The position numbers and the translations under genes were made by a program. This document shows positions 5,752 through 55,310 of a stretch of DNA of 64,000 bases, one piece after another. The stretch is from Gonapodya sp. JEL0774 (Eukaryota): contig JADIIX010000027.1 in assembly GCA_027604505.1 (NCBI GenBank), positions 62,001 to 126,000 of the forward strand. Direction: 5' to 3'. Below the pieces are notes generated by a model. That model had not been told where the DNA came from. It did not search any database and was given only the letters and a program-made list of their open reading frames with translations. The stretch's first letter is position 1; every line of letters starts with the position of its first letter.

Positions 5752-7484
5752 ATGTCTGCCGCCTCTGCCGAATCATCCTCTGCGGGTCCCACTGCAAACC
5801 CAATCCCGAGCGACATGAGCGGACCCACAGCAACTAACCAAGAGAACATGTCCGTGCTCCAGAAGCATGTGACATTCTTTGACAGGTGCAAGTCTCACTG
5901 GTCTCTTCGTCTCGATCTCCTTCTTCTTCCCTGCCCAGGTCCCCAGTTATGACTTACCGTCTTTCCATCCTCTCATTCTAGAGACCACGATGGCATAGTT
6001 TCCCCGTTCGACACCTTCCGCGGGTTTCGCGATCTTGGATTCAAGTAAGCTCGAATTCTGGATTATTTGTTCGCCTCGAAGAAACTACGCAAACTACTTC
6101 CTCTGACCTCCATTTCACATCATCTCCTTTCCCACCCTCGCCATGCATATTCCAGCCCCTTGTTCTCAATCCTCGCCATGATCATCATAAATCTCAACTT
6201 TTCGTACCCCTCATCGGACTCGTGGATCCCGGTGAGTTCATGCAAAACGTGACTCGGGGATGCATACTCGACACGTGCTTCCCGCCCGTTTAAGTCTCCC
6301 TATCGGTCTTCAAACTCCACTAATGACGTTGATTGCTATTTTTATCTCTCTATGTCAGGACCCCTACTTTGGAGTCAAGATCAAGAACATACACCGGGTT
6401 CGTTGAAACACTCACTGCATGGTGCGAATGCTTGCTCGTCCCCTCTCAATCCTGACCCGCGCACTGGTTCATACCACCCCCTGCTTTCCTTATCCAATTT
6501 TCACCCTTTGTCTGACTCGGCAACTCAACCGTTATACCACTCTACCAACCATTGGAACTCCCACCCCGACATTTCCCACACGGACATTTCCCCTGTGTTC
6601 CCCGCCACTCAGGCGAAGCACGGCTCCGACTCCGAGTGCTACGACACGCTGGGTAGATTCGTCCCGGAGAAGTTCGAGGAAATCTTTGACCGCTACGATT
6701 CGTGAGTGGCGTTGGAGTTTCCGAATGGCGGGACAGGTGGTCGAGCAAAGGGCGATCTATGGTGGAACATAAGGGAGTTGTCGAAACCAAAGCTTCCAGC
6801 TACAGAGACATGACTTGCGTGATACTTTTCTCGACAAATTCTGTTGTCTCCTCTGTTCATTACCTACATACCGGGGACACTCAATTGTTGCCTGTACCCA
6901 TTCGCACAACCTCACCTCACGTCTGTACCAGCAAGGGCGGCCTCGACCTCTTTGAGCTCGTCAAGATGGGACGTGACATGCGTAATGTAGTGGATCCCTT
7001 TGGGAGGTACTTAACTCGCGTGTGAGGGGGCACTGCATCCATGACGATCGCCGTTCCTCTCAATCCCTTCAATTCTTTACCGATCGATCATCTGGAACTC
7101 CAAACTTATCAAATATTCAGGTTCGCGGCCTTCTTCGAATGGGGCACCCTCTACCTCCTTTGCGCCAAGAACGGTGTGGTGCCCAAAGATGGAGTGAGGA
7201 GGCAGTACGACGGGTAATTTATCTACGGATCCGAGGGGGCAACGCGGGGGTCGCTCTCTGATCTCGAATTTGACCGTTTCGTTTAATCATCGAAAATCAT
7301 CGAAATATGGACAACTATCGCACTGCCCTGGCGCTAACGCCGTGTTGAATTCTCCGTCCACTTCCGCCAAAGCTCCCTTTTCTACGCCATTGAAGATCAG
7401 ATCAAGTCCACGAAGAAGAGGGATGGCGCTATGCCCCACGGAGTCTCGTATGCAGAGAATATGAAGCAGTACAAAATGCAGTGA
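5752..7484 (+). CDS. Caleosin/peroxygenase, multi-exon
   Basis: LQKHVTFFDR|DHDGIVSPFDTFRGFRDLGF (EF hand), SYPSSDSWIP|DPYF (proline-knot-like), NIHR|AKHGSDSECYD.GRFVPEKFEEIF, DPFG|WFAAFFEWG; stop TGA 7482-7484. Confidence 0.92.
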
Positions 7485-7856
7485 ACAGTTCAAGTTGGCT
7501 GGGATGCTAGAAAACAAGGTTGGAGGGCTAAACAAGGTGGTTGCACGAAGTGGTGATTGGTTGTTGTTTGGTGTGGTCTGATCTCAGACATGTTGGTGGT
7601 GTTGTGGGCGGAAGAATGAAGTGTGATTGGTGTGGTGCTGTGGCTAACACCGCCCCTGAAATTTAAGAATGATTTTAGAAATGAAACAAAATGGAATACA
7701 CATGAGAATTTTCAACATGTAGCGTGACCACTCTGATTGTGTTCACAAGTCCTTGAATGCAAGGTTGTATTCAAAACCAGCGGATAAGTCAAACCCAACA
7801 AAATAAAATTACGAAGATAATCCCATATTATCATCTGTGTGGTAAAACAAATCCCC

Positions 7857-8531
7857 TCATGCCACCTTAACCAGTTCGCCAGTTTCAACCTTGTAAATGA
7901 AACCCGAAATAGCAGTCTCCTTGAGAATCAGTGGGTGCTCTTTGAGAAAAGCAATGTCGTCGCGGACGCTCTTCTCCACATCGGAGAACTCTAAGGCGGC
8001 TATAGATTCCACAGCAGCGACTTGCCCCGGTGTGAGCCCCGGACGGGAGCGGAGTTTCTCGTGAAGATCAGTTGTCTTGAACGTTAGCATACCACAGTCA
8101 CTGATTGTTTCAAGTGCCAATGGTGCCCGTTATAATCGAAGGAACGAAAACAGAATTGATTTATATCATCGACTCACGTGTGGTGGATGATGATAATCTC
8201 CCTGGTGCCCAAAAGCTCCTGCGAGATAACAAGCGATCGGATCGATTCCGAGACCCTCCCCCCAGCGTTTCGGATATGGTGGGCGTCACCCTCGTGCAGC
8301 CCGGTCACAGCGTGGGTGTTACTTCACTCAAATGAAATGATGGCGATTCGAGAGGATGACGACCATGACTCAAAAAGTTCCAATGAAATACACATGGACT
8401 CACAGTCGCGCATCCATGCAGCCAACGATTGCGATTTTCTTGCCGGGAGGAAGTGGCAAGCTCCCTTTGTCACCGAAAGCTGCGACGTAGGCCGCATTGG
8501 CCGCGGGGAGGTTGGTGACGGCGTAAGACAT
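7857..8531 (-). CDS. Beta-class carbonic anhydrase (clade D-like), 3 exons
   Basis: [44 protein letters not shown] zinc ligands, [14 protein letters not shown] 8531. Confidence 0.92.
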
Positions 8532-8956
8532 GATAATTCCTCTTGGTTTTTTGCTCTAGTCTTTGTGAAATACCCAATTAAGAGCAATGTAGGCGGTGTT
8601 TGTTATATGTCACACAAGTGGCCTCGAAAATGATCACGCGATATTGCAAATTGCGGGAACATGGATCGGGTGGATCGATCGGCTGGGACTGCTCACAGTG
8701 GCGGGACTATCATTGCAATGAGATCAATATGGACAGCGGTTATGAAAGCATGCAATGACTTCCCTTATTTAAATCTCGTTTTTGTGGCTGCAGGCGCCTC
8801 CATGTATGGGGCTGAGACAGCGACAGATTTCATTCCAGGATCACCATTGCAGAGATTGAGAGAGAGCGAGTGCAGTACAACAATACTGGTACTTTGCTCA
8901 GCGGGAGTGCTTGCCAAGTGTACAACAAAACAAAACCACAGCAGGAGGAAAAACAT

Positions 8957-9039
8957 TGAGAGAAGTGGGATTCGAACCCACGCCTCCGAAGAGACCAGAA
9001 CCTTAATCTGGCGCCTTAGACCAACTCGGCCATCCTCCC
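8957..9039 (-). tRNA. tRNA-Leu(AAG)
   Basis: Reverse complement GGGAGGATGGCCGAGTTGGTCTAAGGCGCCAGATTAAGGTTCTGGTCTCTTCGGAGGCGTGGGTTCGAATCCCACTTCTCTCA: A/B boxes, CCAGA/TCTGG anticodon stem with AAG, long variable arm, followed by a T5 Pol III terminator. Confidence 0.97.
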
Positions 9040-9324: not shown

Positions 9325-12300
9325 CTACTCGATGTACATGGATACCTGCAAGGTCCTTCCAGAACCTGCTACCACCTCGTACTTCACAGTTCCCGCTGCC
9401 ATACTCGACGGAGTGGTGGACAGGTTCGTTTTGCCAGGCTCGGCCTCGTCAAAGAGTACGGTCCGGAGCGAGTTCAAGTACGTGGCAGATGTTCTGTGTT
9501 GTCACATGAAAGAGGAAGCGTCGGCAAAGATTATGCAAAGGTGGGACCAGGTACGTTAAAAAAAAAATTCTCAAGTCGTTCGACGATTGACGTGGCTTTC
9601 AGTTTCACACCTTAGCAACGCATCTCCCTTCAGGTTTTTCTTTTCTACCTCACAGTGGGTGTACAAGGCCAGAGCAGCCAAAATGCAGTCAGGAACACCG
9701 CGTCGAATACATTCGCTTAGAACCGCTGAGGGGACAGCTGGGAGCGTATACACCGGGAAGAGCTCGTGGGCATTTGGATCAATGTTGAAGTCTGCATACG
9801 TTGCGGGAGGGGTTACGTAAAGTTTACCGCCACCGAACACGTACGAAATACTGACGAACGTTGAATCTAGCCAAACGAATCTTCACCGGCTCTGCACAGC
9901 GGGGCGAGAAGAGTCGAAGCACAGCACTGTCAGTCTGTAACAGGGAGTGAGGATGAACGACGAGTTTACAATTTCAAAACAAAACGTGACTTGACTCACG
10001 GCTGGAACTCCTGTCCCCATCGCCACGACGGTACCGATTGCATCTGGTTCATCATCGTCTTCACTTCCATCAACTGGAACTTTTACTTCAGCGGCTGAAT
10101 CCACCTGCATCGTACCAGCACCACCCTCCGCTTTAGCATCTGCTGACCCAAGTTCCACTTCCACGCCTCCGGCCTTCCCCAGCCTCTGCGCCCAGTCTCT
10201 CGCCCAGCTAGCAATTGCTGCCCACACCTCCGAGTCGTTACCGTCAGCCCAGTTAGCGAAAGGGTTGACGGCATCTCCAATGAACGGCCGCCGCGAAGCA
10301 ACAACAGGCGGTACCAGCCCTGACTCGTAGAATGAATACGGGGCAACCAAATTGAGGTGCGAGGGACGAGCGAGGAGAACCAGACAGTGAAGGATATTAT
10401 GAAAGAGACCGGGTGGAGGGCTCGGAGGCCGAGCAAGCTACGTACCAATAAAAGAGTAATCAGTCGCTTATTTAGTACAGCATGATTGAGTTCATACCTC
10501 CTCCCATGCTCCCCTCGCAACCCAGTCGCACATTTCTTCCACATCCCTCAATGTCTTGTCGACGGGCCAAATGTACGCCATCATCATGAACTTCAAAAGC
10601 TTGGCAGCCGTCCTCCAATCGACGTCATTGTTGTTCAGCACCTGCTGAGTGCCCGAAGTTGTTGCATTCTCTCTAGTATCTCTTTCTCTCATCCGCTCTC
10701 TCGCTGCCCACCGCGCACCTTCTCGGGCGTACCAAGAACTCCAATCCCACACCGCAGCTCTCTTCTCCCATTCTGGAATTGTGCTAGCCGGGTTCAACAC
10801 CTCGGACATGTATCGTTCCAGATCTTGACGTTTTACTTCAGCACAAAGAACAACGTCGAAGGGCTGGCCGTAGTAGAAGAACGTCACGCCCGCATGAGTT
10901 GACCTGATGTTCTGCACAGCATCGCGGCGGCTCCGAGAGGCTGCGAATTGCTCTGCGGCAATCCGCAAAACTTGAAGCAAGTGGCTTGTCGGCCGGAGGG
11001 AATCCAAGCGGGGGTTTGGGGGTGCCTGAAGGTACAATACAACCTTGGTGGGATGATTAAGGATCGTAGTGTGCCGGCAATAGCTACAACAGAATTCTGA
11101 GTACTCGCACAGGATTGTTCTTGGACAGACCAACCCACCTTCCCCATCCATTGGCAGCCACGACTTTCACCCTGTTATCTGCTTTCGCTACCTCGTTGCC
11201 CAGCTGCTCTTCAACACCTTTCACCTTTTCCTCCGCAATTCTCCTAATAACACCCCCTCGACCAATACTCTTTGCGAGTGCCATCATAGCCTTGTTCCAA
11301 TCCTTCACACTCTCGAGTGTCATAGCATCCTTTTGTTCCCTAGAAACTGTGTCAACACCACCGACTTCCCCACTCTGGATCACCCCCAGCTCTAATAGAG
11401 CCGATCTCGCCGCTTCTTCTTTGGCTGCTTTTTTGGAACCGTGCCACGCACTCCATGGCATATCCTTATTACCGACGTTAGCTCGCTGGCGATAGCGTGG
11501 AGCACCGCCCTCCCTACTCTCTTCAAGGTAGAAACTATGACCCATCCTGCGACGCTCACTGTACTCTTTGAGCCTCGATACTGGGTGTAAGTGTGGTGCG
11601 GCAAGAGTTCCTCCCCCTGGAGCGGCGGCGTTGGGAGCGGTCCCGACAATTGGTTCTCCGACCCTCAGCGGCGCAGCAGGGATGTTGATCCCCCTCGCCC
11701 TCACCGCATCAGCAAGACCTCCTGATCCCACTCTGGCTGCTTCAATATCGATCCATACCAGCTCTGCCACGTCTTCCCTCGCATCTTGCTTTCTGCCATA
11801 GCAGAATCTGCTTTCGTAAGATTTCCCCAGAAAAGTGTCCCGACAGACCCATCCACCATGGGGTAACTGGACACATTCGAGTGCAGGACGGACTCCAAGC
11901 CCCATGCGCGCACACGTCTCCATAAGGCGGCTGATAGGGCTTACTGCAGTGGAAAGTGGTGTGCGACCTCCTGGCAAGACTGCCGCTGTTGGCACAAACG
12001 GTCGCGAGGAGAAAACTGGAGCGCCAGAAATGAGAGCTTGTTGAGCAGCAGTATAAGTGGGCAGAACACCGCGCAAGCTGGGAGACATTTGCGCAAGGAA
12101 TGTAGAGGGATCCGCAACCAGAGGTTCCTGCGCCGTAGCACCTGAGGTGAGCAATGAAAAGGTCAAGCTTTGTCTCTAAAACTTGCAGTCCTCTTGCTCT
12201 GCACTTCCACTCTCCGAATACAAAGTTCCGAAATTCAGCAAATAGGAAAAAAACATCGAGTTCAAACCGACAACGATTTGAAGGCAATTGCTCCTCGAAC

Positions 12301-13909
12301 GCTTGCTCTTTTCAGAGCAGCAATCGAAAAACGACTGCGGACTGATTGATCAACATCATGTCCGAATATCCGGTACCGAAATGGGGCTGGAATCCCTTCC
12401 AGTGCAACACCTCGCACCCATATGCATAGCAATGGGTGGAAGATGATGCTCCCACAAAGACACGAACAAGAGTAACTTTCGAACAGATGGGGAAAAAAAG
12501 ATATGTCGCACCGATCATCCGGACAGGATTCCGAGGGCCAACACATGATTCCGATAGTTAAACCAACGGCCGAGACCAGGTTGTTTCTTCCAAACGATCA
12601 AAACGAATGAGGCTCCGCAGCCACAAAAGTATAAAATGTTCAGGAAGGACACAAGTGTAGATCACAGAAACATCCTCCTCTACCCACCGTCACCGGCAGC
12701 AGCCACTGTTGTTGGAACAAGAGGCGTGGGTGTCGGCCCCCCAGTGTTGCGAGCGAAGTGCGCGCCAGCAGTGGTGCGTTCCTCGGTCTTGATGGATTTG
12801 CTTACCCGCTCGAAAGAGCCAGGGGAGTCGACAGCTGACCTTTTGCCAGAGTTAGCAAGCGAATTCACCTGCGGCTCAGAGGTTGGCGGCTGGAGGGGAT
12901 TCGGGGTGTGCGCTTGCACTGCCGCTTGGGATTGCCCAGGTACTGGAGGCTGCGCAAATGTCGAAGCGATCGCACTCGCAAGGTCCGCTGACCCGCCGCC
13001 AGCCTGTGGAGCTGGGCGAAAGGGGACAGGGGAACCATGGAAGGGCGCTGCAGGGGATGGTGCGGGTGTGCTGGACGCGGTCGTGGCAGCCGCAGTCGAT
13101 GCAGGGAGCGCAGAGGCAGTCGTAGAAGCGAGAGGCGATACTGCATTTGTTGCGGAAGAAGGTGGGGGTTGTGCAGTGGCCACACGAGGTGTCGCTGGAA
13201 TGTGAAACATCTTGGCTTCCTCCGATGTCATGTGCCCCTCCGTGACAGCTTGGCCAACGCAATAGCGAAGAACTTTCGCAGCGACTTCCTCTTTTGCAGC
13301 ATTTGGGTCCACATTCGGTGCGGACGAGAATGTGACCCCTTCCTCAGCAGAACAGAAAGCCTTGTTTAGTCCGTCTTGTAACTGGGTCACAATAATCAGC
13401 GGAAGAGATTCGCCATTATCCATGAGTAGGAAGAAAGCTGCAAGTCGCTTTTGTGCAGAGTTCGGGGACGCAGATAGGCGTGTAACGGGGGGTGGAGGTG
13501 CGAGATGGTTCTCTGTTCCCGCAACAGGGGAGCTCTGTGCGGAGACCGGGGCAGTCTGAGGAGACGACAAACTCTCTGTAGTAGTGAACGAAATTTCTGC
13601 CTTCACATTGCTCAGGTTTGATGGAATGGTACCCGGATTCATGCTCTGGGTCAGAGGAGATACGACGGCCGATCCAAGACCAGAGAAGAGGCCAAGACCC
13701 GCGTTCGCAAAAGGATTGATCCTCGGGGTAGTTGAGGAATGAACAGGTTTCTGCTGGGCCTCCAAGCTGGAGTTGGCTGATTGGCCATTAATCCCCTTTG
13801 ACTCGATGGATGACAAGTTCCAGTTGGCAAGAGGAGACGCAACTCCTTTACGCTCGGAATCAACAGCAGAGAGAAAATCTTCCAGATTTTCCACGTCCAG
13901 GTGGGACAT
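9325..13909 (-). CDS. Multi-dsRBD protein fused to an OAS/CD-NTase-like nucleotidyltransferase fold (DxD degenerate), multi-exon
   Basis: dsRBD-like repeats (KRLAAFF...AAKEEVAAKVL; PISRLMETC...RKQDAREDVAELV; HPVSRLKEYS...GSKKAAKEEAARSALLEL). Removing intron 11084-11138 gives GWGSYCRHTT...VVLYL, then FDVV, AAKLLKF, AWEE, GLFHNILHCL and RPFIGDAVNPFANWA. The 12680-13915 ORF can join by a phase-compatible intron 12143-12687 (inferred). Confidence 0.7.
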
Positions 13910-14142: not shown

Positions 14143-14969
14143 CACTTGACGTCAAAGACTTGAAATTTTCGTGCGTTTTCTATCTCATTTCTAAACAATT
14201 GTCCAGGTACTACGAGGAATGGGATAAACCCAAACGCACAGCAACAAAACGTTACCTCTAGACAAAACCACACCACACAAAGCCAACTACCACATAATCC
14301 TTCCAAGTATTTGTTTCCTCTACCTGGAGCTTTTGGATGTTAAGCGACTTGGAACATGTGTATGTACACATAATCTGACTTTTGATCTATGGTGTTGTTT
14401 CAGCAAGCGAGGCAGCTTGGCATTGATACAGACTTTTGGGGGAAATGAACTATACAAGCGTTTTGCGGAGTTTCTAATATTTGGGCGCACAAGGTGTTGA
14501 TCAGGGCATAAGATGATGATCGGAGAATCGCCGTCCGTCTGTGGCCTTCCAGCCGTCAACCTATAATTCTGCTTTGATTTGGACATGACGTCGCACCGGC
14601 AGCAGTCATCTCTCCCGCTATCGATTACCACAATGACAGGTCGGTAGAGTCATGAATAATAACTGTGCTGGTGGATGGATGCCGAGGTCGCCAGTCTAAC
14701 GTGCGCAGGTGTGAGAATGACAGAGCCGACCCTCGGACAGGAGGCTCCCAGAGAGTCTGTTTCTTGATAGAGATAAAGGAATCAGTTTGTTGATTGGAGC
14801 TATGGCGCATATGATACCGGCTGATGGGAAAAGTTTGCGTGCAAATCATGGATCGGTACGAGGGCAAACGAACGCAAACAGATTGCAAATGAGACAACTT
14901 TGCCAGCTCAGTTTGAATGGGATTACTGCAGGAGTATCGTTGCGCTGACTGAATTCCGTCTTCGAAACA

Positions 14970-17216
14970 ATGCTTCAACTCCAACCGCTATTCACAACAC
15001 TGTTCGGCAAGGCCATACGTTTACTCTGCGTGCTGACCCCAGTGATACCATCGCCGATATAAAGGAGCGGCTCTGCACCTCGCAAGGACTTCCCGTACAG
15101 GCCCAACGGCTCCTCTACCGGAACACCGAACTCTCGGACGAGTTCAAGAGCCTGGAGGACTGTGGAATCAGATCGGGAGCCAATTTAAATCTTGTACTGA
15201 ATCTTGTCTCCGGTGGGTCGCAGTGGAGCAAGGAATCGTTGGTGTCACCGACTTCTGCTCTGAATTTTTTCTTCCTCTCTCAATCCAATGGAAACAGGAA
15301 CTGCCCAGCAGCTCCGGCAACTCCCCAAGCCCGAAACCCCCGCCGGCTTCTACCTGTTGTTTTTGAAATCGGATGACGATGATATCTACCTCGAACTCCG
15401 CAACGGTACGGGCACCGGGCGGCGGACGCCAGTTCGGCACCGTATCAATATAGCAGGCATCGGTGCAGGAACTGAAGTGGCCGGTGGGAAACGGTCAGCT
15501 GGATCAAGGGGAGACACGGGAGGTTTGGTGAGGATGGGGCCCAGTGGGGAGTTGGAGCTGCTGCACGCGGCTTCTGTCGACTCCGGTGAAAGCACGCCCA
15601 GAATGAGGAGTGCGGGTAGGGCTGACGTAGACGGCGACGGCGATCGAGACCGGACAGGCTCCACACCGGGCACCGCAACATCGGAAGATTCGTCAGACAT
15701 ACAACAGCACCCCTCCCGAATCCGGCCACTGTCAAGTGATTCGCTCTCCTCATCCACATCCACATCCACCACATCAGCTTCTACAACCTCAGTCTCTTTA
15801 ACCTCCTCGTCTCTGTCACTTTCTGTTTCCTCCTCCGTGCCTCACTCCGCCTCGTCCGCCCCTTCCTGCATCCGGCGCTCCCTCGCCACCACAGCCGCAT
15901 CTTCATCACCCCCCTTTGCGCGACCACCATCCTCAGCAGCCACGTCTCGGACCACTCGTACCGCAGCATCGTCACCGTTACCATACCTTTCATGTGCAGC
16001 ATCTGGAGATGATTTATCACTCTCTGCAGTCATGGGCATTCAGAGACATGGACTCAAAAGCCACAATGGGGCCGGATGTGATTCGATGGTAGCGACAGTG
16101 GCGCGATCTGGGAAGAAGGTATTGCCTTGCGAGCGTGAACTTGAATTTGAGTTCCAGTCCGCAGCTGTACCGATCGCGGACACCCACGGCGGTGGCATCG
16201 TTCCCCCTACTATTCGAAGGACACAGCGTCTCCGCCCCGCCACAACGATTGGTTTGAAACGAGTGACTCGATGTGTGGGCGACGTGGGCATCATAATACC
16301 GGACACGAGGCCCGCAAGCGCAGAAACAGCTGGAGCGCGCAGAGCGGGGTCCGAGCTCGACTCAGCAAGGCTGGCCGAGGTGGTTGCCGAGGCGGAGAGG
16401 GCATTAGAAGAAGCGGAAAGGGCAATGGAAGGTTTGGCTCAAAGGGTGGCGGACATGGTAGTGGGAGTGGACCAAAATGGTCAGACAATGGAGTTTGGGT
16501 TTGGCTCTCGGTCCGAACCTGGTTCCGCAAATCTGACGTTAGAGAGGCCGGCCAATCCATCACCACCAACAACAGCAGGGTCTGCTGGTGGGCTAAAGTT
16601 GAGTTCGACCAGCACATCCGCCTCTACCTCGACTTCAGACTTGGACTCTCCGCAATCATACCCATCCCTTCCAACCACGCCTGGACCTCATTCTATGCAT
16701 AATTTTACGGTACCATTTGTGGAACAAGAAGGTTGCCCTCCCCGATCTCCCGTTGTGGCTGATGTGGTCTTTCTAGGACCAGTAGATGAGACCCGAAGAT
16801 CCGGCAATTCACCAACCGTAGTTGCAGCGATACGAGTCAAATCGAAACCGAAACCGAAACGAAATGGGACCGGCTATGGTGGGTCCGCATCACCACCTAC
16901 CCCCGCTTCATCAAAGTCAAGTTCAGCATTGGGGAGGACAGTTGGGAGAAAACCATCTTCGTTGTCGCGGGTTGTGAAACAGGCGAACCCTGTACCACCT
17001 CCAGCAACACATTGCGTACGCTGCCGCGCGAAGTTGAGGCCGGCGGCGAGTTTCCCGTGTCGATTTTGCCCCACACAGGCAAGGTTCTGCGGCCCTCATC
17101 GGATGCCAGAGACACACGGCTGTGTTGGGTACAGAGAAGGGTACCGGAAAGAAGGACGCGAGAAATTGGGGAAAGAGCTTGTGATGGTCAAAGCAGAAAA
17201 GGTTGGGAAGGTGTGA
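14970..17216 (+). CDS. Ubiquitin-like + AN1 zinc-finger protein (ZFAND4/ANUBL1-like); start uncertain
   Basis: GHTFTLRADPSDTIADIKERLCTSQGLPVQAQRLLYRNTELSD...LNLVLNLVSG (Ub-like), long low-complexity linker, C-terminal CVRCRAKL...CRFC...FCGPHRMPETHGC...VKAEKVGKV (AN1). Confidence 0.82.
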
Positions 17217-19402: not shown

Positions 19403-22400
19403 ATGAGCGCAGCCCCTGCTCCTGCACTCTCACCGGGAGATGTGCAAGGCACCAGAGCTTTCCCATCCGATGCCGTTTTCTCCCTCCGGATCGTAAGCAT
19501 GGACACTTATCAGTCACCACCACATCCTTGGGGCCATGCCGTTAGCCGACCATACGCGTTCGCACGCGACGGAGCAAAACATGTAGGAATACGCTCTGTT
19601 CCGACGATACGCGTTTTTGGAATCACCCGTTGGGGGCAGAAGGCGACGATGCATGTCCATCAGGTGCGTGTATGCACATGAATTGCCCCATAGTTTGTTT
19701 TGGAGTCGACTTTTGCCGGAGCTTTATCTGACTAAACTGAGGGACGATTAAATTTATCGTTTCCATGCCTGTTTATTCTCAGTGTTGGCCGTACTTTTAC
19801 ATTCCATATGAAGGAAGCACAGAACACCACGCAGGTAGTGGGATGTCCCATTTGAGAGACCAAAGTACCGCTGACATCACTCAATTCCTAGTTTCTCTGT
19901 TTGCCCGACATCTTGCCGTATCCCTCAATCACGCACTTGCTATTGCTCGCAACACGGACCCCAACAACCCTTCACGCTCACAGCATGTTCACTCTATCAT
20001 TCTCTGCAAAGGAATCCCATTCTACGGACTCCACACCTCGTACACTCTGTTTCTTAAGGTTTCTTTCATAGACTCCTTTTCGTGCTCACGTGCAGCCGAC
20101 CTCCTGTCCTCTGGCGCAGTTCTGGGCCGTCCCTTCCAGCCCCATGAGGCCCACATACCTTACCTCCTTCAGTTCCTTCTGGACCACAATCTCTTTGGCA
20201 TGGATTTTATCCACCTCCGCAATGTTCGCTTCCGTACACCTATCAATGTCGCACCACGAGACCAACTCGCAGCCCTTCAATCCTCCCTCCCTCCAAATGC
20301 CCTTCTCCATACAGAAACCACAGTCCCCGCAAACTTAATCTGGCCTCCATCTTCGAAGCCTCCGCCTCGTACCTCATATTCTGACCTCGAGCTGGATTGT
20401 TGGTGTGCCGACATTCTCAACCGGATTTCAGTTAGCGAGCGGCCCCACGAACCTTTACTTCGCATCCCTCGCTCTCCACAATCCACTGCTCACCCCACAC
20501 CCTCATCGTCGATACAAAATCTATCTGTGAAACAACCTTATGTTCCCTCCCTGTCGGCCATATGGTCTGACGAGGTCGCCCGTAGATTGCGGTCGGGGCT
20601 TCCCACTGATCTCTCACCCCAAATATCACAAGAGCCACCTCGCACGACTCCAGAGGATTGGGATATTGAGCCAGAGCTCCGCCAATCGATTGAAGAACGT
20701 TGTACAGCGGCTGCTGTGAACCGAATCGCCGGTGGACAACTGGATGGTGATGGTCCAGCCGGTAGCAGGGGTGTCCAACAAGGTGTTTTGCAAGCACCTA
20801 CTGTCGAATAACAAGAATGTGAGACAATGACTGACACGCCGTACCTCACAGGCGACCCTTATCCCGGAGTTCCGACCGCTTGGCGCAGCACTGAGCTTGC
20901 TTGGTCAATGCCCGGCGCTCTGACAGTCCCAATTGTGAATGACAACACGGGAGTAGCCGCGAATGACCTGGGTAGAGTGCATCGGGAAGGTACATGGCTT
21001 GACGGACAGCTTGGTGGGGCTTCAAATCATTTCGCTGAGGGGCAGCGTCGCATCCCCGATGTCGAACCAATCATCAATGAAAAGGTTCTCTCTCAGCACT
21101 TATCTCAAGGCGCTGCTGCGAGCTCACAGGGCATGGGGCGCAACTTAAGAGGAAGAGACGAACGGTGGGGTTGTGGGTTGGAGGGTGAATCGGAGGATCA
21201 GGATGCTTTTGACAGGGAGACGCTTGAAGAAGGGAACCCTGGGAGTAGGAAAGTGGACAGTGATGACGACACGGCAGCTATATTGGACTGGATGCGCAAA
21301 AATAGTGGCACAAGTGGTGCCACCATTAGTCAGGAGGAGAGTGACAATCGTGCTGGCGAAGGCAACGAAGAGGAGACGCCTGCTCAAGAGACCATGTATA
21401 TGGAGAGCTACACAGATGAGGACGGTGAAGATGTCGGGGTGGAGGATGTGTCAGATTGGTTCGGGGACGCAATTGACGGGGTTGGAAACGCGGACCGCGA
21501 TGCCGAAGCAAGCTCGGACTCGAATTCCGAAGATGATGCCGACCTGCAGCGGAGTAGAATTGGTACTCCCGACATCAACTTCCACCAACCTAGATCGGTG
21601 CAACCACGGAGCGGAACGGAAGAGAGTGTGGGCGCCCTATGGCCCCCTGTGATCCCTCAGTACGATGGGGCAGGGGATGATGATGAAAATGAGAACGACG
21701 GCATGAACGATATAGATGAAGGAGACCAGTGGGAAGCGAGTTGGGACCTCGCAGATGTGCCAGTAGAGGGACAAGAAGTGGTGGGTGAATCGAAAGGGAA
21801 GAGAAAGGCGTTTGGAATGACATGGATGACTCAGGAGAATGAGGAGAGGAGACCTTCGAAGGTGAATATCCGCTTTACGGATCATGCCATACACTTGCTT
21901 ATGGTAGATTGTCACTTGCAGCGCAGAACCACCGAAAGGAACTTGCACTCCTTTCCACCCAATTTATTTTCGGAACATTCTTCGACCGTTGGTTTACCCC
22001 GCCAGCGCTCCCTGCTGCGGTGGAAGATTCCTCGTCCCAAGTCATCAACTGTGGTTCCCCCATCAAACTCCCTGCCACGCGTCTCTGTGGCAGCCGTTGA
22101 TCACGCTCATAGCGTTGATGTGGTTGAGGATGATGATGACGAATCCTCAGCTCCTGCAGCGAACCGACCTCGTGTCTCCCAGGAACAGGAGAGGCGAGAG
22201 AACTACTCCGCTTCAGTAAACGGCCTTCCAGAAGATGAGATAGAGATGGGGTCGTCTGATGATGACGAGGTGCTGCCGTCGTCGCTACCGAAGCGAAAAG
22301 ACAGGGTGCAGACAAGGCAGACGGGTGTTGGCATTCCAGACGTGGATTTGATTCACAATGAAGTACCTCGGGCATCGACCTCTATGGCGATGCCTCTATC

Positions 22401-25400
22401 TTTGGTGCCTGTTTCGTCGCTTGCTTGGCGGCAAAGGTCGATCGGAGTTGGAGTTGGAGGACCAGAAATTCTACCATCTCTCGGGGAACTGCACAATGCT
22501 CAACCAAACTTGGAGACGCGAGGTACCAGCCAATCGAACTCCGTGTCGCAACAGATGTCGGTGGTGGAGAGTACCTCATTTGTGGCCTCAAGTTCTACGC
22601 TGCCTCAACTATCTCCGATAGCGATAGAAAGCGCGACTCTGGCTCTTCCCGAATCGACGCCATCTTGTGATCTCCAACTCCCCACGCCCATTCACTCAAC
22701 CGATGGGAAGGCATCTAACTTCCTCTCACAGGGATTGTGGTCACCGCCAAGAGCCGATCGAATGGATGACGAGTTTCTGTCTGATAAACCAGCCTTTTTG
22801 TGGGATCCACCGAGGCCGTGGTCTCCTTTACGAACATCAGAAAATAAATTTGATGGAGGGGAGGGCATGGGATTGGCAGAGGTGGGCACTGCTGGCGATG
22901 GACTTGAGCTAGGAGAGGCTTGGCGCCTCCGAGAGTCAATTCGCGAACCCAGCCCAGAGCTGGAGGGTGATATCATTGTTCACCAGAGGACTATCACAGC
23001 TGCTGTATTCCGAGCACCTGAGAGAGACGCCTCCTTACCAGAGAGGCAAAGAGATCGTGAGGAGGTGGAACGATTGGATAAGTCTCAAACCGAAAAGTCG
23101 GTTAGATCCACTTCTGCCCATCCTCTTTCTGTAGGGACGGGCCATTTATTCCCATCTGAATCCAGAACGCGAGGAACGTGGTGGAAGTACTCAGTGGATC
23201 CACCCAGCGTTGGTTACATTGCCCGCAGTTGCAGTGAGCTTAACGTCCCAGAGACGGAGTATAAAGGTATATTGCAAATCTACAATTGTCACTTCAAATC
23301 GGTTATTGGAGCCTTCCTGATATCGGTTGTGCCAGATGCCCACTACTCCAATCCTGCAGATGTTCCTCTTCGACCAAAGATATTTGCTGGCAAGGAGTGG
23401 CGTCTGAAATCTCTCGCCCTATCAGAGTTGCCGGAATGGGATTTCTCTATACCGCTTCTCATATCCAATCACGTTCCAGGACTTCGAAATGATACTGAAA
23501 GTTCTTTTAAACCTAGCTGGATGACAGTGACCGCAAATGGGCGGCGAAAGTGGTGGACTCCCCATTTCCCCCCACCTAATCGAGGCGAAATTGGAGTTTG
23601 GTTGCGGAAGAATCCACAAGGACAGCATGTGGAGGGTATTTCTGAGGAGGATTTGGCTGATGTAGAAATCGAGACGTTGCAGATTGAGACGAAGGCAGAC
23701 GGTACGTGAATTTACGAAAGTGACGTTCGAAATGCCCGATCGGTTCAACAATTGGTATATTAGAGTCCAGCGCACGGGGCATCCTGGCTACACAAGTGCC
23801 GATGCGAGATATTAAAGCGGTTTCGCAAGTGTGTTGGATGCGCCAGACTGCGAACTCAACCGTTTGATTGTTACAAATTTATTCCACAGATCGAAGCTCC
23901 AACTCCGAAAAACCCTTACGGTTTCAAATTTGAGGCCGAGAAGTCTCATTCATCTGTGACTCACGAAAGGCAGTATTACAGCATGCTAAGCTTGGATGTT
24001 TTAGGTAAGGTTCAGTCCTCCCTTTGCAGCTCTTTGTGTTGAGCTGGTCTCGGCTTTAAGCTGGTTGTGCAAAGGATATGTTGCCTGATCCTGCCAAGGA
24101 TTCCGTACGTGGTGTTTTTTTCTGTTTGTATATTGACGGACTCAGTCTGCATAAATCGAATGGCATCAAGAAAGGGTACGTAGAAGTGAAACCCAAGTGC
24201 TTTTTTTGGTCTCCATCTCCCGTTCTTGGCATACAGATTTCATGTTGGAATCATAAAAGTAGACGACGGCATCGAAGTGAAAAGAACAGGGATTACAGGT
24301 GACTACGATGAAATCGCTTTGTTCTTGCATTGTGTATGTGAAGTGCTAATATTCCATGTCAGGCTACCCAACTGAGATCGTTTCCGACGAGCGGTCTTTG
24401 TTTGAGGCACTGGTGGCAAAAGTCCGAGAATTTGACCCGGATATTATCCTCGGTTATGAAATTCACAATTCATCGTGGGGTTATCTCGTTGAACGGTCCC
24501 ACGCAATAGGTAAGCTTGCTTCTCTTTCATCAGTTCCCCCGATTCCGAGAGCTAATAATCATCCCCTTCTCAGCATATAATCTATTAGAGGAGCTTTCTC
24601 GCACGAAGGCTCATGCAACCACAAAGCACTCCCGCGACGAGGACGAATGGGGATTCAATCAGACGACGAGTGTTCACGTGACTGGCAGAGTGGTCCTTAA
24701 CGTCTGGAGACTGATGCGCGGAGAGTTAAACTTGACATCGTATACTTTCGAGAATCTGGTTTATCACGTTTTACATCAACGGTGCGCGCCTCCCACCTTC
24801 TCTCACTCTCAGAAGAAGCTCCATTAATGGAAAGACTGTTTTAGTGTGCCCTATTTTTCACCCTCTACTCTATCAGCGTGGTACGAAAGATCGGCTTTGT
24901 GGCAATGGCGCGTGGTTCGCTATATGCTGGATCGGGTGCAAAAAACGGTGGAGCTGCTTCTCGAGGTGGATATAATTGATCGAACGAGGTTTGACTGCCA
25001 TCGAGCCCTGCATTATTTTGTGGTGGTGACTGATATGCGGAATCCCAAAAAGTGAATTTGCTCGTGTGTTTGGCATTCAATTCTACTCAGTTCTTGACCG
25101 TGGATCTCAATTCAAAGTCGAATCTGTGATGGCGAGGATAGCGAAGCCACAAAATTTGATCATGTTTTCGCCCAGCAAGAATCAAGTGAGTTGAGAAGAA
25201 CACTGTGATCACAACAGAGAAGTGATACTTGAACCCTCCATCGAAGGTCGCGAGTCAACGAGCAGCGGAATGTCTTCCTCTCATCATGGAACCAGAGTCC
25301 CAATTTTACAACAGCCCACTTTTGGTGTTAGATTTCCAATCCCTTTACCCGTCTGTTATGATAGCGTACAATTATTGGTGAGTGGTCGTTCGACAAACGC

Positions 25401-27683
25401 TCTGGTCTTATTGTTTGGTCACTTCGCAGTTGCAGTTACTCGACTTGCTTGGGGAGAATACAAAGCATAGGCTCTACTCACCGCTTTGGTGCTTCTGATT
25501 ATGAAATACCTGTGGACATTGCATCGGATCTCAAGGATCATTTGAATGGTAGGATCTGCAACACTCCTCACCTCTCAGAAATTTGCAAGCAAAAGCCTCT
25601 CGTCCACAGTCTCACCGAATGGCTTGGCATTTTTGAAATCATATGTACGAGAAGGGGTGTTAGGTTCGTGGTTACTGCTTGGATGTAGCTCCCTCACAAC
25701 CTTCTCACAACCGGGTGCAGGTAAAATGCTCTCTGAAATTCTGGATACGCGAGTGATGGTTAAAAGCTCCATGAAGTTGCACACAGACGACAAGGTTTGT
25801 AGGCCGAGTAGTTCACTCTGAATCTCACTGACGGCTTTTCAATCAGGCACTCATGCGTCTTCTGGATGCCAGACAGCTCAGTCTGAAGTACCTGGCGAAT
25901 GTGACTTACGGATACACCAGTGCTTCGTTCAGTGGTCGAATGCCTTGCAGTAAGTGAATTTCGTGCTCGCTGTAACCAAGTGCTGCAAGTCTCAACACCC
26001 CATTCACCAGTCGACATTGCCGATGCTATCGTCCAAACGGGTCGGGAGACGTTGGAAAAGGTAAGTGAAACCGTTCAGCGAGCCGTCTGTCTTGGGAGTT
26101 TCCTCTCTGATCTTTTTGCAATTGTGAATTAACATATAGGCTATAAAGCTCATACACTCCACACCAGAGTGGGGAGCACGCGTTGTGTATGGTGACACCG
26201 ACAGTTTGTTTGTGTACTTACCAGGGGCGTCTAAGGAACGCGCTTGGAAGGTTGGCAAAGAGATTGTCGACGAAGTTACAAACCGAAATCCATATCCAAT
26301 GAAACTGAAGTTGGAGAAGGTCCGTCTTAATTGCTGACGAATCCGACTTGCCCATTGTGTGACATGCAGCTAAAACTGATCACTCGGATAACTTCGACAG
26401 GTTTACCTTCCATGCGTACTTCAGACGAAAAAAAAGTATGTTGGTTGGATGTATGAGACAGAGGATCAAAAAGATGCGACTTTTGATGCCAAGGGGATAG
26501 AGACTGTCCGCCGTGATGGATGCCCGGCAGTCACGAAAATCCTAGAGCAATGCTTGAAGTGAGTGATTGCGAATCACTCACGTTGGCAGCTAACGTCTTC
26601 TAATTCCACAATTGGCAGGATTCTGTTTCGTACCCAAGACATCTCCATGGTGAAAACATTTGTAGTGCGTCAATTTTCTAAGATCATTACCGGGAAAGTT
26701 TCCATCCAAGATTTTATTATTGCAAAGGAGGTTCGATTGGGCACATACAGCGACAAAGGCATTCCCCCACCTGGTGTAATTGTTGCGAAAAAGAAGATGG
26801 AGTTCGACAAGCGTGCGGAACCACAGTACGGCGAGAGAGTGCCTTTTGTCGTTGTGAATGGTGGACCAGATTCGAGGTTGTACGAGAATGTCGTATCTCC
26901 CGAAGAATTGTTGAAAAGCAGGTGCCTTCTTTTTCGTACGAGCACTTCTCTGTTTTTGATTTTCATCACGCGTCGTCACCATCCCCCTTTTCTAAGATCT
27001 CTTCGATTGAATGCACATTACTACATCACCAAACAAATCATTCCAGCGCTTGCGCGCACTTTTTCTCTGATGGGTGTTGGTAAGTAAATCTTGAAGGTGA
27101 CCTAGCTGCAACTTGTCCCTCATGCCTACCACAATGCATCGTAGATGTCCTGTCTTGGTTCTCAGAAATGCCTAAAAGTGAACGAGCAATACGCTACTCG
27201 CTCACACAAGTAGCCTCCTCCCAAGGAGCACCTTCACAGGCACTTTTCTCCAGTCAGAAACGTACACCTCATTCTCGGAAAAGGAGATCTCGTGGACCGC
27301 AAACAATCGAGAAATTTTACGCCACGAAGCATTGCGTGGTTTGCCAAGATCTCTCGCCGCATGGTATGCTTATCAAGTGGAAGTATTCCATAAATACACT
27401 GACCTTTCCATCACTCAACTCCCACTCCCCTTCAGATGTCTGTCCTTCGTGTCGAGCAAATCATCAGGAATCCCTCGTGGCACTCATTGGTGAAGTCCGG
27501 CGCTGTGAGCATAAGTACACAAATCTCCTCAAGGTCTGCCGTTCTTGTACCGGTCACATCCCACCGTTGGAAGAAGATCCACAGTGTGAGTCACTGGATT
27601 GCTCGATCTTGTACGCCCGTGTGACCGCGAGGAGTAAGGCGAGGTACGCACAGAAGTTGTTGAAGGTGGCACAAGAATTTTGA
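19403..27683 (+). CDS. REV3: DNA polymerase zeta catalytic subunit, multi-exon
   Basis: VPTIRVFG...HVHQ, PHEAHIPYLLQFLLDHNLFGM, DPDIILGYEIHNSSWGYLVER, RGSQFKVES, LDFQSLYPS, KYLANVTYGYTSASFSGRMP, YGDTDS, KGIETVRRDGC, EPQYGERVP, C-terminal Cys clusters. Confidence 0.96.
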
Positions 27684-27850: not shown

Positions 27851-29764
27851 CTACCGTTTCTTTCTCCCACCACCCCTCCTCGCCTCGTTTGGATTCTTCT
27901 TGCCAAACCCAATCACAGGTCCCTGCACACCTCTAGATCTCGCCTGTCTCAGCGCTCTCTCTCTGTCCACATCTTCGGCAAACATGTCAGGCACCCAGTC
28001 TGGATCCATAAAGTGTGCTTGGCTTTTCATCTCTTTACGGATAGCCCATTCTTGAGTTTTGAGCGCTTTTTGGTACTCGCGTTGATCTTCAGCACGGATA
28101 AGATCGGTACTGTTGCGGCCTCCTTTTGGCATAGGTACATCGTACTGCGACAAAGGAGTTGGATGAACAACGGCAGCAGGTGTCACTGTCACGAAACAGC
28201 CATTAGTCCGCTGACGCAGCATAGCATACCTTCGTACCCCTCAAGTTGTACTGGAAGTTCTTTTTCAAAAACACACGCAGGTTACCATTCTTGTCCACCT
28301 GCGACGTCGTCCTCATCAGGGTGTTTCCGCCACACGTGGGGCAGAAGCGCTTATCCATGGCGGTTGTAATCCTATGGAAACATTCCGAAAGGGAAGCCAC
28401 CCGAGCGATGAAGAGATGACACAGCTTAGGTGAGGTAATTCTGGTGCGAACAACTAAAGAAGAGAAGACGGAATTGGGCAACTCACTTGAAGCAGGCATG
28501 GCACCGAAGGACAAAAGTCTTGATCTTGGTAATGGCGATGCCATCAAACGAGAGTAGTCTGAGGTTCATTTGCAGCAGCACATTCTGCATGGCGAGAACA
28601 ATCAGAAAGCATCACATCCACGTATGTACTACAAACAACTGACCTGTATTGCAAAGTCTGCCGTCATACATGCAACCGTACTCTCCACCACCTTGACATC
28701 ACCGGCAGGTTGTGCTTTCGCTTTGAACTTGTGGATGTTGGCTGGTGTGATCCAGCCATCATCAAGTTCTGTGTCGTGAGCAATTGGGCTAGATGGGATG
28801 TTGGAAGGGGTTGAGGAAGAAGTGTCGGCAGCGGAAGGAGTGGCCGGAGTTTCGGTGCTGAGGGATGGGGGAGGATCGTCTGATGACCCGACTCGTGATG
28901 GGGCCTGCGATAAAATGGCATCGTCTTCGGCAGCATTTTGTACGTCATGATCCGAGAAGTCACTTTCGCTTTCGAGAGGGTCTTCTGCGCCCGCGTCGTC
29001 CGCTTCCTCCGCGTTTGAAGAGTTCGGTTCCGTGGAGTTCAGTTCCGTGGAGTTCGGTTCCGTGGAGGCTTCCACAGTGCCAATCTCAACCTTTCGGACT
29101 TCAGCCCCGCTGGGCTCCGAGCTTTTGCCTTTGCTCATTTCTATCGCTTCCACAACGGGTGTTGGCGAAAGTGGTCCGTTCGTCGACGGATTGTATGAAA
29201 TCGGCGATGATCCCTTTGTCTCGGCAGCAGGTGAGGCGCGCGCAAGTTCAGTTTTCTGGGGATTGGACGGCGCTGCGCTTCCAGGGTTGACGACAATTGG
29301 AGATTTGGGAGCGGTACGGAGGTGTGCGATGCCATTGACCTCTTTCTCCAGCATCCACGTCAGGGCGAGCACCTTCAAGTCCGTTACTGAAAGAACAGAG
29401 AAGTCTCCGGTTTTCTTAGAGAACGAAGTTACTGATGACGCCGATCATTACGATGTAGGAGGGTGATTTGTAGTTTTAACATGCAACTTTGAGATCAAAT
29501 CCGCATGAAGAGCTCACCTGCGGCAAACGCTTCCTCTGAAGGATTTCTAACTGCGATCGGCACTGGAAGCATTTCTAAATTCTGCTTCGCGCGCTTATCT
29601 CTGACCTCGTTAAGGACTTCAGGAATGGTGACGATGGTTGCTCCATCTTCAGTCAAGGAAGCGAGCTTCGAAGGCGGCAGACGGAGGAGAGGACCCGCGT
29701 CCAAGACAGTTGTTTTGTTTGGCGCTTTCGGTTTCGCTACGGGGACAACTGGAGTACTCGACAT
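27851..29764 (-). CDS. NOB1: 20S pre-rRNA D-site endonuclease, multi-exon
   Basis: PIN VLDAGPL...EVRDK, LSVTDLKVLAL, DDGWITPANI, CMTADFAIQ, LRCHACF...FCPTCGG zinc ribbon, LIRAEDQREY, GKKNPNEAR. Confidence 0.95.
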
Positions 29765-52907: not shown

Positions 52908-53112
52908 ACCAAGCTACTCTGTATACGATATGAATGACCAATATAGCACTTACTGCATTGATTCATTGTTATACGCAGAAAGAATAGTTACAATTTCGCA
53001 AAGAACTTGAGATTGTGATTGACCGGGTGCCGGAGTCCAACACATCAAACCACGATACCTGCTGCCCTCTGCCCAACCTTTTTTCCGATTCTGTTGTCTT
53101 ATTCTCTACTGT

Positions 53113-55310
53113 ATGCCGGCTCCTATTTCTGAAGGCATGGAAACCATGGCGGGGATGCTTGCAGACTACATATCAGGGACTCTTCCTTCATCTCAAGAAA
53201 GATTCACGGGAGCTGGCCGAGTTCAAATCGTCGAGCACCCAGATGACGGTCGCGACGACAGAGTTTTGGTGGCGAAAGTGGCTTTCAAGGCACGAATCAC
53301 AGGAGCGATTTCGTTCTTCACTTGTTCACTCATATGCTCTTTCTGACCAGCCAGGAGACATTATTTTCACCGAGCGACCTCTTCTGCACACCTCTTTCAG
53401 CAATGCGCGCAATTTCCGTCCGGATCCCGCTATACCAACCCTCGCCCCGGATTTTCAGCGTATCTTGTTCGACTTCTGCAAACGATGGCGTATCTGGAAG
53501 AATCGCTCTGAAGCCACCAGCGCCGACCTAAATACGTCGTCCGATACTCTTCTCTTTGATCTTGCTATGAGCTTGCTCTCCACCGATGGAGTGGAGGGTG
53601 ATATGGCAAGGGAAGTGGATCCTCGCCGTGACAGGGATTATGAAAGGGGAGTTCGCGCATTCATCAAAACTTTCACGAATCTCGTTAGAGAGAGTCAAGA
53701 TAGATTTAGAGATCTCTCCGGGGCTGGGGAAGGACCTGAAGGTCGCACCGATGCACCAGTCCACGTAGGAATGATCCAAGTTCAACCTGAGGCTCCGTCA
53801 ACTCAGAGAGACGTCCCAAAAACAGGTACTAAACGCTCAGCTGATAAATTTAGTAGTTCGGAAGCTACACTACGCCGCGAGGGAGCTTCTCAGGGATCTT
53901 CGACCTCGTCGAAAAGGCGCAAGTTGACCCACCGAGACTCATCAGCTGCTGGCATTTCGGAACCTTTGATGCCTTCTGAGAAAGAACTTCTTCACTTATT
54001 GGCCGTCCTCGAAACAAATTGCCACTCGCGCGCTGTCGCGCCATCGATGGGGGGAAGTGTTAGTTCTGACGCCGACGACCCTGATCCGCCCCGCGACGAA
54101 TCAGTCGGACTTTATCTTGCGGGATCATTTATGGACCATTCATGTGCTCCAAATGCAACCGTGTCTCTGTCTCCGCCGAAAATCGATCTTGAACCTGCTC
54201 AGACGGAGGGTAATCTCACCCTTCTCTGCCTTCGTGCCATCTCCCCGGGGACGCCCATCACCATCAGCTATTCTGACAATGAGTTTGTTCCCACTCAAAG
54301 CAGACGCCAAGCCCTGCTTCGACGTGGTTTTCTCTGCACCTGCGATGCTTGTTCATGTAGGGATGCCTCGAGGGCCGGCTCATGTTTCGGAACCTGCGAT
54401 GGCACTGGAATACTGGCCCCAAGACCATCTGATAACGGGTCTGATGATGATGATGGAGAAGAGGAGGGGGCAGTTGAGGATCCGTCCGGGGAAGTTTTAG
54501 TGTTTGAGTGTGACATTTGTGATACGAGGTGCTCAACTGAGGAGGCACAAGCATTCATCGCGGCAGAGATTGAAATAGAGGACGACGTCGAGCAACAACT
54601 GCGCATTGTTGAGGGGGTCCTGGAAGTTGTGCAACAGTGGTTAAGTGGGTCTGTTGAAAGTGGATTCGAGAAGAAACTGGACGATTGGAGTGGCCTCGTA
54701 GCGCCGCGATTGGTGGTTAGCCAGTGGCAAAAAGACCTTCTCCAGAGAGTTGGATCGCTATCGATGAAAGCGAAATCAAAGAAGAAGGGCTCATCCCGAA
54801 CGGACAAGGATCGGGTATCAGGGTCAGGGCAAGTTAGTCGGGCAGCGGTTGAGCTGCACATGATTCACTCGACCTTCTACCAGTTTGTCAAAGAAAATTT
54901 GTACTCTGTAAGTGATCGTCTTCATCTATACCACCGTCCGTTGGCAATAACAGATGTGTTCCCCCTCATGTTTCTAGAATCCCAATTTTCGCATCGTCTT
55001 CACACATCCTGAAGCTCCTCTCCATGCGACCATATACCTTGCTGCAGCTTGCCTTCGTATCCTCGACCTCTCCGCCTCCGCTTCTGGTGAACTCACACCA
55101 CTCGCGAATTCCAGCCTACCTGAGACTGCCCGGGTGGTCTTTAGCGAAGATCTGCGACATCATTTTGTTTGGATGGCTAAAATGGCAAAGCTGGCTCGGA
55201 AGACTGTCCTGGGACGATGGGCTGCGGGGCTGGCAGAGAAGATGAGCACAATAATGTACGGAGAGGATAGCGAAGAAAGGAGAGAGGCCTCTGAACTTCG
55301 GACAATGTAG
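53113..55310 (+). CDS. SMYD-like SET-domain methyltransferase
   Basis: RVLVAKVAFK|PGDIIFTERP (via a GC-AG intron), LETNCH, GLYLAGSFMDHSCAPNA, LRAISPGTPITISY, RRQALLRRGFLCTCDAC post-SET; stop TAG 55308-55310. Confidence 0.85.

Follow-up and report, generated by a model that had tools for sequence, protein, structure and literature searches.

Do fungi sense double-stranded RNA (dsRNA) outside RNA interference (RNAi)? The question is raised, and becomes testable with a defined protein, by a gene in a 64,000-nucleotide stretch of DNA from the aquatic fungus Gonapodya sp. JEL0774 (assembly GCA_027604505.1, contig JADIIX010000027.1, positions 62,001 to 126,000 of the forward strand; hereafter the window). 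The gene lies on the minus strand between positions 9325 and 13909, and a first-pass annotation of the DNA letters described its product as three dsRNA-binding domains (dsRBDs) fused to a unit resembling 2'-5'-oligoadenylate synthetase (OAS) or the CD-NTases, and hence as a dsRNA-recognition protein. Our analysis reveals dsRBDs followed by an OAS-derived unit that has lost catalytic residues and by an unclassified C-terminal domain, and the protein is probably a non-enzymatic dsRNA adaptor whose mode of action would resemble that of OASL or NF90 and whose origin lies in OAS. This dsRBD-fused, probably catalytically dead variant of the OAS family is real and likely undescribed, and was found here only in Gonapodya.

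An OAS-type unit behind dsRNA-binding domains

The gene belongs to a family of five proteins, all from Gonapodya and three of them from G. prolifera. They comprise the JEL0774 protein (NCBI protein HDU93_004681, identified by homolog search and labelled P0001), its 910-residue ortholog annotated independently in G. prolifera (P0002), and three paralogs (P0003, P0004, and P0005). The dsRBDs are N-terminal to the OAS unit in all family members. The paralog P0003 passes the Pfam OAS1_C cut-off with 37.2 bits (cut-off 19.9, E = 3e-9), carries an automatic OAS1_C label, and matches OAS2, OAS3, and OAS1 in the PDB over both lobes; it is homologous to the JEL0774 OAS unit over 278 columns (hhalign, 98.7%). 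A profile built from four family proteins matched PDB chains of OAS2 (7e-8), OAS1 (6e-6, chain residues 47–328), and OASL (5e-5), and OAS chains, six of the nine listed, were the only sequences under E = 0.5.

Searches with single exons or a single ortholog gave no relevant PDB match and no OAS match in Pfam for P0001 or P0002, OAS1_C being the sole Pfam match of exon 4 alone (E = 0.15). Pfam assigned DZF to no family member, and SMODS scored weakly in paralogs (E = 0.08 and 0.15). Chains of DZF, cGAS, and bacterial CD-NTases were not among the matches listed in the PDB profile searches, which is an absence from a list and not a test of those families. In the Atlas, a feature search with residues 335–690 of P0002 put OAS clusters at the top (0.94, 173 of 256 shared), with DZF clusters at 0.92 (157 shared), and the structure of the ortholog unit retrieved an OAS1_C cluster first, with a TM-score of 0.71 over 304 residues, the best SMODS cluster reaching 0.68 over 281 residues. 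Exon 3 alone gave only leads below 0.9 in the same resource.

The DZF clusters, 5 of 30 matches in the feature list, bear on a different account, in which the protein would be a very divergent member of the NF90/NF45/ZFR family with reversed domain order and would not derive from OAS at all. A pseudo-transferase joined to dsRBDs, as found in DZF proteins, would suit this architecture. However, OAS clusters score higher by features and come first by structure, P0003 exceeds the curated OAS1_C cut-off, and the family aligns to OAS1 end to end; we consider a DZF origin very unlikely. By its domain content, the JEL0774 protein belongs to the OAS superfamily. The OAS-like motifs named in the first-pass annotation are all present in the order given, and its OAS call holds in sequence profiles, Atlas features, and Atlas structure, each of which ranks OAS above DZF and bacterial CD-NTases. 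Its use of the G-S-Y motif as a pointer to CD-NTase/SMODS enzymes does not hold: the available excerpt of PMC4446440 gives Phe at the same position in OASL and Phe or Tyr in poly(A) polymerase, so the motif is not specific to CD-NTases.

Loss of the catalytic triad and of groove lysines

Of the three catalytic acids, the JEL0774 unit has lost two. The D-x-D position reads P-x-K in this protein, R-x-K in P0002, S-x-E in P0003, and S-x-D in P0005, the stretch being missing from the P0004 model. An ungapped alternative register for the JEL0774 protein places T754 and V756 there, which are also non-acidic. The third acid is probably Asp in the JEL0774 protein and in P0002, with Ser, Ser, and Lys in its place in the paralogs; the full three-acid triad is found in none of the family members. 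In its available part, PMC4446440 describes the triad as necessary for catalysis and the loss of one acid as contributing to the inactivity of OASL, and excerpts of the same paper and of PMC3467086 state that two-metal catalysis requires three acids. With two of the three gone, a working 2'-5'-oligoadenylate (2-5A) or cyclic-nucleotide synthase is unlikely, and the OAS unit is likely a pseudoenzyme.

The opposite proposal, an active synthase of 2-5A or a cyclic oligonucleotide that is switched by dsRNA and uses a non-standard site with basic residues in place of metal, could draw on the G-S motif, Asp818, and Lys906, all kept in both species, and on an N-lobe that is 71% identical. It must contend with a D-x-D position that is non-acidic in either register (P753/K755 or T754/V756), with paralogs that lose different acids, and with a two-metal chemistry that needs three of them, and we regard it as highly improbable. 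The retained Ser742 of the G-S motif and Lys906 may correspond to the phosphate-orienting Ser and Lys described in an excerpt of PMC3467086, and nucleotide binding may survive with them, as in NF45.

The RNA-binding surface also appears altered. Charge swaps at K63 and K66 abolish OASL function, according to the accessible section of PMC4446440. These two lysines align to A736/G739 in the JEL0774 protein, Ala/Ala in P0002, Glu/Glu in P0003, and Asp/Glu in P0005, whereas OASL R45 aligns to Gly in the JEL0774 protein and to Arg in P0002. No register was obtained for the R196/K200 region of the groove because of an Arg/Glu-rich insertion between the lobes. Judged from these alignments, the OAS RNA groove looks eroded, and the simplest reading is that the dsRBDs took over RNA binding. 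Between the two orthologs, 125 of 175 N-lobe residues are identical (71%), as are 54% in the C-lobe and 79% across dsRBD2 and dsRBD3. The linkers reach only 12–50%, a difference from the N-lobe and the dsRBDs which argues that the catalytically dead unit is maintained.

The flanking domains

The dsRBD fold (alpha-beta-beta-beta-alpha) with a KKxAK motif is present in dsRBD3, which passes Pfam dsrm with 29.6 bits (E = 1.1e-6, cut-off 23). In the ortholog, dsRBD3 is the sole confident part of the full-length AlphaFold2 model, with a predicted local distance difference test (pLDDT) score of 70–86, and it superimposes on dsRBD3 of ADAR1 (Foldseek E = 1e-4; Z = 10.5, root-mean-square deviation 2.5, 77 residues aligned). 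Domains of TRBP, Loquacious, ADAR1, and HYL1 all resemble it. For dsRBD2, dsrm is again the sole Pfam match but falls below the cut-off (12.4 bits, E = 0.25); 52 of its 66 residues are identical in the ortholog. The third candidate, in exon 1, has no Pfam match, is missing from the P0002 model, and scores 2.7 bits against a profile of the other dsRBDs in the family, over the last helix only; shuffling the whole exon gave as high a score twice in 1000 trials, and local shuffling never did in 1000. The earlier count of three dsRBDs, two of them clear, is therefore reduced to a clear dsRBD3 and a probable dsRBD2, with the exon-1 copy doubtful. The prediction of a dsRNA-recognition protein is well supported.

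Behind an acidic linker, the protein ends in a domain of ~140 residues, 79 of 142 positions being identical in the ortholog. This domain is common to four of the five family proteins (it also occurs in P0003 and P0004; the P0005 model stops before it). It matched no Pfam family at E = 10 in any of the three members searched and no PDB entry under E = 0.3. There was no ubiquitin match either, while the ubiquitin domain of a neighboring gene scored E = 2.5e-14 with the same library. A remote beta-grasp fold is possible.

Gene structure and a mis-spliced database model

The minus-strand gene consists of seven exons separated by six GT-AG introns and encodes 1225 residues without internal stop, from the ATG at 13909 to the TAG at 9325, exactly the limits that the first-pass annotation had drawn (Table 1). 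Removing the 55-nt intron that it proposed leaves the frame in phase and yields a G-W-G-S-Y motif. NCBI model HDU93_004681 is mis-spliced at 11084-11138 and at about 10300-10497; it runs on into intron 2 and lacks both the G-S-Y motif and one helix of the C-lobe. Because P0002 contains both, the introns of the first-pass annotation are supported, and the junctions, which rest on homology, score higher than those of NCBI (911 versus 870 bits to P0002, and 112 versus 88 to P0003). On a profile made from P0003 and P0005 only, the spliced unit scored 83.3 bits and the NCBI version 56.7. The unit read in reverse gave -2.3, and among 500 shuffles of it (318 gave a score) the highest value was 3.7 bits. 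The gene models place the exons for the dsRBDs and for the OAS unit in a single gene, as had been proposed, both lying within one protein in JEL0774 and in G. prolifera. Introns 1 and 2 have an identical donor, GTGGGT (positions 12687 and 11138), and the models of paralogs P0004 and P0005 also appear incomplete. Errors of the kind seen in HDU93_004681 may conceal the OAS-derived family in further genomes.

Exon 1 deserves separate treatment. It has an open frame, a phase compatible with exon 2, and a codon-position bias typical of coding DNA, and its join to exon 2 is also made in the NCBI model; the P0002 model has no counterpart of it. Exon 1 could instead belong to a separate or alternative transcript, the protein then starting near exon 2 with two dsRBDs. 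Residues 1–340 are missing from the G. prolifera model, intron 1 is long (546 nt versus 55–117 nt for the remaining introns, with no Rfam match), and exon 2 carries an early in-frame Met, all of which would fit such a start. We nevertheless think it unlikely, given phases that fit, a donor like that of intron 2, and the same join in the NCBI model, and the dsRBD-OAS fusion is unaffected either way.

Table 1. Features of the gene and its surroundings (window positions)
Feature	Position	Strand	Remarks
Exon 1	12688..13909	-	Residues 1-407; ATG, low-complexity Ser/Pro/Ala region, doubtful dsRBD-like stretch
dsRBD1-like stretch	13253..13462	-	Residues 150-219; degenerate or no dsRBD
Intron 1	12142..12687	-	546 nt, GTGGGT...CAG; stops in all three frames, T-rich
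Exon 2	11139..12141	-	dsRBD2, dsRBD3, start of OAS N-lobe; aligns to P0002
dsRBD2	11744..11941	-	Residues 475-540; probable
dsRBD3	11384..11587	-	Residues 593-660; clear, with KKxAK motif
OAS N-lobe	10729..11308	-	Residues 686-860; Pol-beta nucleotidyltransferase fold; ungapped match to P0003
Intron 2	11084..11138	-	55 nt, interrupts G-S-Y motif; spliced reading present in P0002
Exon 3	10498..11083	-	65% identity to P0002
Catalytic D-x-D position	11044..11052	-	Reads P753-T754-K755; register from alignments to OAS1
D818	10855..10857	-	Probable third catalytic acid; register by eye, uncertain
Arg/Glu-rich insertion	10624..10728	-	Residues 861-895, between lobes; in P0002, not in P0003
OAS C-lobe	10174..10623	-	Residues 896-1025; OAS1_C-like, crosses intron 3
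Intron 3	10438..10497	-	Within OAS C-lobe
Exon 4	10000..10437	-	End of C-lobe, acidic linker
Exons 5-7	9934-9856, 9791-9611, 9493-9325	-	C-terminal domain and stop codon
tRNA-Leu(AAG)	8957-9039	-	286 bases past stop codon of the OAS-unit gene, same strand
Spliced gene	about 7400-8555	-	Two exon pieces without Pfam match at E 0.001; presumably resembles a beta-class carbonic anhydrase (Cys-x-Asp-x-Arg motif)
Ubiquitin domain and AN1 zinc finger gene	14825-17216	+	Head-to-head neighbor; by its architecture presumably an ordinary ZFAND-type gene
Family B DNA polymerase	19741-27683	+	Ordinary neighborhood
PIN-domain nuclease	28629-29444	-	Ordinary neighborhood
SET-domain gene	52988-55012	+	Ordinary neighborhood

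A family not listed in earlier surveys

A profile of the unit searched against 1.84 billion representatives returned eight matches with E no higher than 0.001: the two orthologs, the three Gonapodya paralogs (P0003, 3e-18; P0004, 4e-12; P0005, 2e-9), and three repetitive proteins. The latter (P0006, P0007, and P0008) carry unrelated Pfam families and were dropped. Word-index searches returned known proteins only (2 of 1208, 2 of 7991, and 1 of 222 candidates, the last search being weak and missing even P0005), and no relatives were found in plasmids or, by peptide pattern, in viral and metagenome contigs. Since Gonapodya proteins were the starting point of these searches, which did not reach canonical OAS at the thresholds used, further fungal OAS proteins are possible.

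Neither of two recent surveys of OAS evolution lists a member from fungi. Across 174 species that include 15 fungi, the accessible part of PMC10400998 reports relatives of OAS in animals, choanoflagellates, and amoebozoans and no fungal member. In the portions of PMC10732462 at hand, G. prolifera (EP00132) scored 0 for OAS in all three tables, and the supplement has no CD-NTase row for identifiers EP00120-EP00159. In supplementary file 1 of that paper, as far as available, EP00132 has a STING value of 1 in the combined table and of 0 in the genome and Venn tables. The divergence of the family and its missing catalytic motif probably explain why it was overlooked in G. prolifera, and reported absences of OAS in fungi may partly be detection failures. 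Our literature search, whose coverage leaves out most subscription journals, found no report of a fungal OAS or a dsRBD-OAS fusion and none linking oligoadenylate synthetase with Gonapodya; a 2025 review of fungal cell death leaves OAS unmentioned.

A proposed dsRNA adaptor and its possible roles

We propose that dsRBD3, aided by dsRBD2, would grip long dsRNA in place of the OAS groove, whose lysines are gone. The OAS unit would make no 2-5A and would act as a scaffold instead, in which Ser742 and Lys906 perhaps still hold a nucleotide. Clustering on dsRNA would then display the C-terminal domain to a partner, as in human OASL with its ubiquitin-like tail.

Several observations weigh against this adaptor model or parts of it. 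The C-terminal domain matches no family, which leaves the partner-recruitment step an analogy. The Arg aligned to R45 in P0002, Arg745, and the basic-rich insertion remain, so the OAS unit may still touch RNA. The register of the third acid is uncertain, since HMMER shifts that strand. Both Atlas searches are a single source, with a mean pLDDT of 0.50 for the model of the whole of P0002. The first-pass annotation had predicted a Pol-beta nucleotidyltransferase/OAS1_C fold for the C-terminal half; the Atlas match to the OAS1_C cluster and the profile alignments to OAS1 agree with it, but AlphaFold2 with Foldseek was uninformative. Models of the OAS unit had mean pLDDT values of 41 (from a four-row alignment) and 34, which are of low confidence, and the former retrieved nothing in Foldseek or VIA-align. 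As to function, the neighboring genes are housekeeping, and the identity between the two species is high, unlike that of a fast-evolving defense gene, a comparison made without a genome-wide baseline.

The OAS ancestry and the several diverged paralogs speak for a role in defense, as do giant-virus capsid genes in two genomes of Gonapodya's phylum, reported in an excerpt of PMC12247965 that does not name Gonapodya. A mainly antiviral role is plausible on these grounds, but we lean slightly away from it. A bolder version, in which the protein is a monoblepharid relic of ancient OAS immunity, would have the dsRBDs sense viral dsRNA, the dead unit act as a switch or nucleotide receptor, and the tail serve as a new signaling or effector module. 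We think this rather unlikely; if true, it would mean that these fungi recognize dsRNA by a pattern-recognition pathway separate from RNAi.

The adaptor mechanism could also operate on another RNA target, with no role in defense, in which case the protein would be a housekeeping dsRNA factor. It might control structured RNA of the cell itself in the manner of NF90, or assist RNAi as a cofactor of the TRBP, Loquacious, and DRB kind, and its dead OAS unit would be a module for paralog dimerization only. The likeness of dsRBD3 to domains of TRBP, Loquacious, ADAR1, and HYL1, the strong conservation of the domains, and several dead paralogs in one genome (three in G. prolifera), reminiscent of NF90 with NF45, fit this picture. 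Yet dsRBDs are all alike at such distance, so these matches name no pathway, and the unit descends from OAS rather than DZF. We rate such a housekeeping factor as rather improbable, though as the leading alternative to the adaptor reading. Complex prediction for the units of P0002 and P0003, which come from two species and were paired with alignments unused, scored 0.01, a value from which no verdict on pairing follows.

Comparison with known nucleotidyltransferase-fold systems

Bacterial CD-NTases (SMODS) and eSMODS share the fold of the OAS unit, as seen in the Atlas, and rank below OAS by features and structure; bacterial CD-NTases are active enzymes and are not known to carry dsRBDs. OAS1, OAS2, and OAS3 are closer, with a nucleotidyltransferase and OAS1_C unit that aligns end to end. 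A non-catalytic OAS unit in OAS3 reportedly serves RNA binding. In OAS1, OAS2, and OAS3, unlike in the JEL0774 protein, at least one unit has the complete triad and dsRBDs are absent (PMC10400998, in its accessible part).

Human OASL shares with the JEL0774 protein an incomplete triad, an aromatic residue after the G-S motif (F70 in OASL, Y743 here), and an extra C-terminal domain. The two differ in how RNA would be held and in what lies behind the OAS unit: in OASL, dsRNA is held by the groove of the OAS unit itself (K63 and K66) and the ubiquitin-like tails act on RIG-I, whereas the JEL0774 protein has lost the groove lysines, gained dsRBDs, and carries a tail without ubiquitin match. NF90-NF45 likewise combines a pseudo-nucleotidyltransferase with dsRBDs that drive dsRNA binding, and NF45 still binds NTPs (PMC3467086 and PMC11952958, in excerpt). 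NF90, however, belongs to the DZF family and has its dsRBDs after the nucleotidyltransferase. The JEL0774 protein is of OAS type and has them first, a domain order not found otherwise in the searches made here, so its likeness to NF90 is probably convergent. After OASL and NF90, the Gonapodya family would be a third example, and probably an independent one, of a dead nucleotidyltransferase put to new use on dsRNA.

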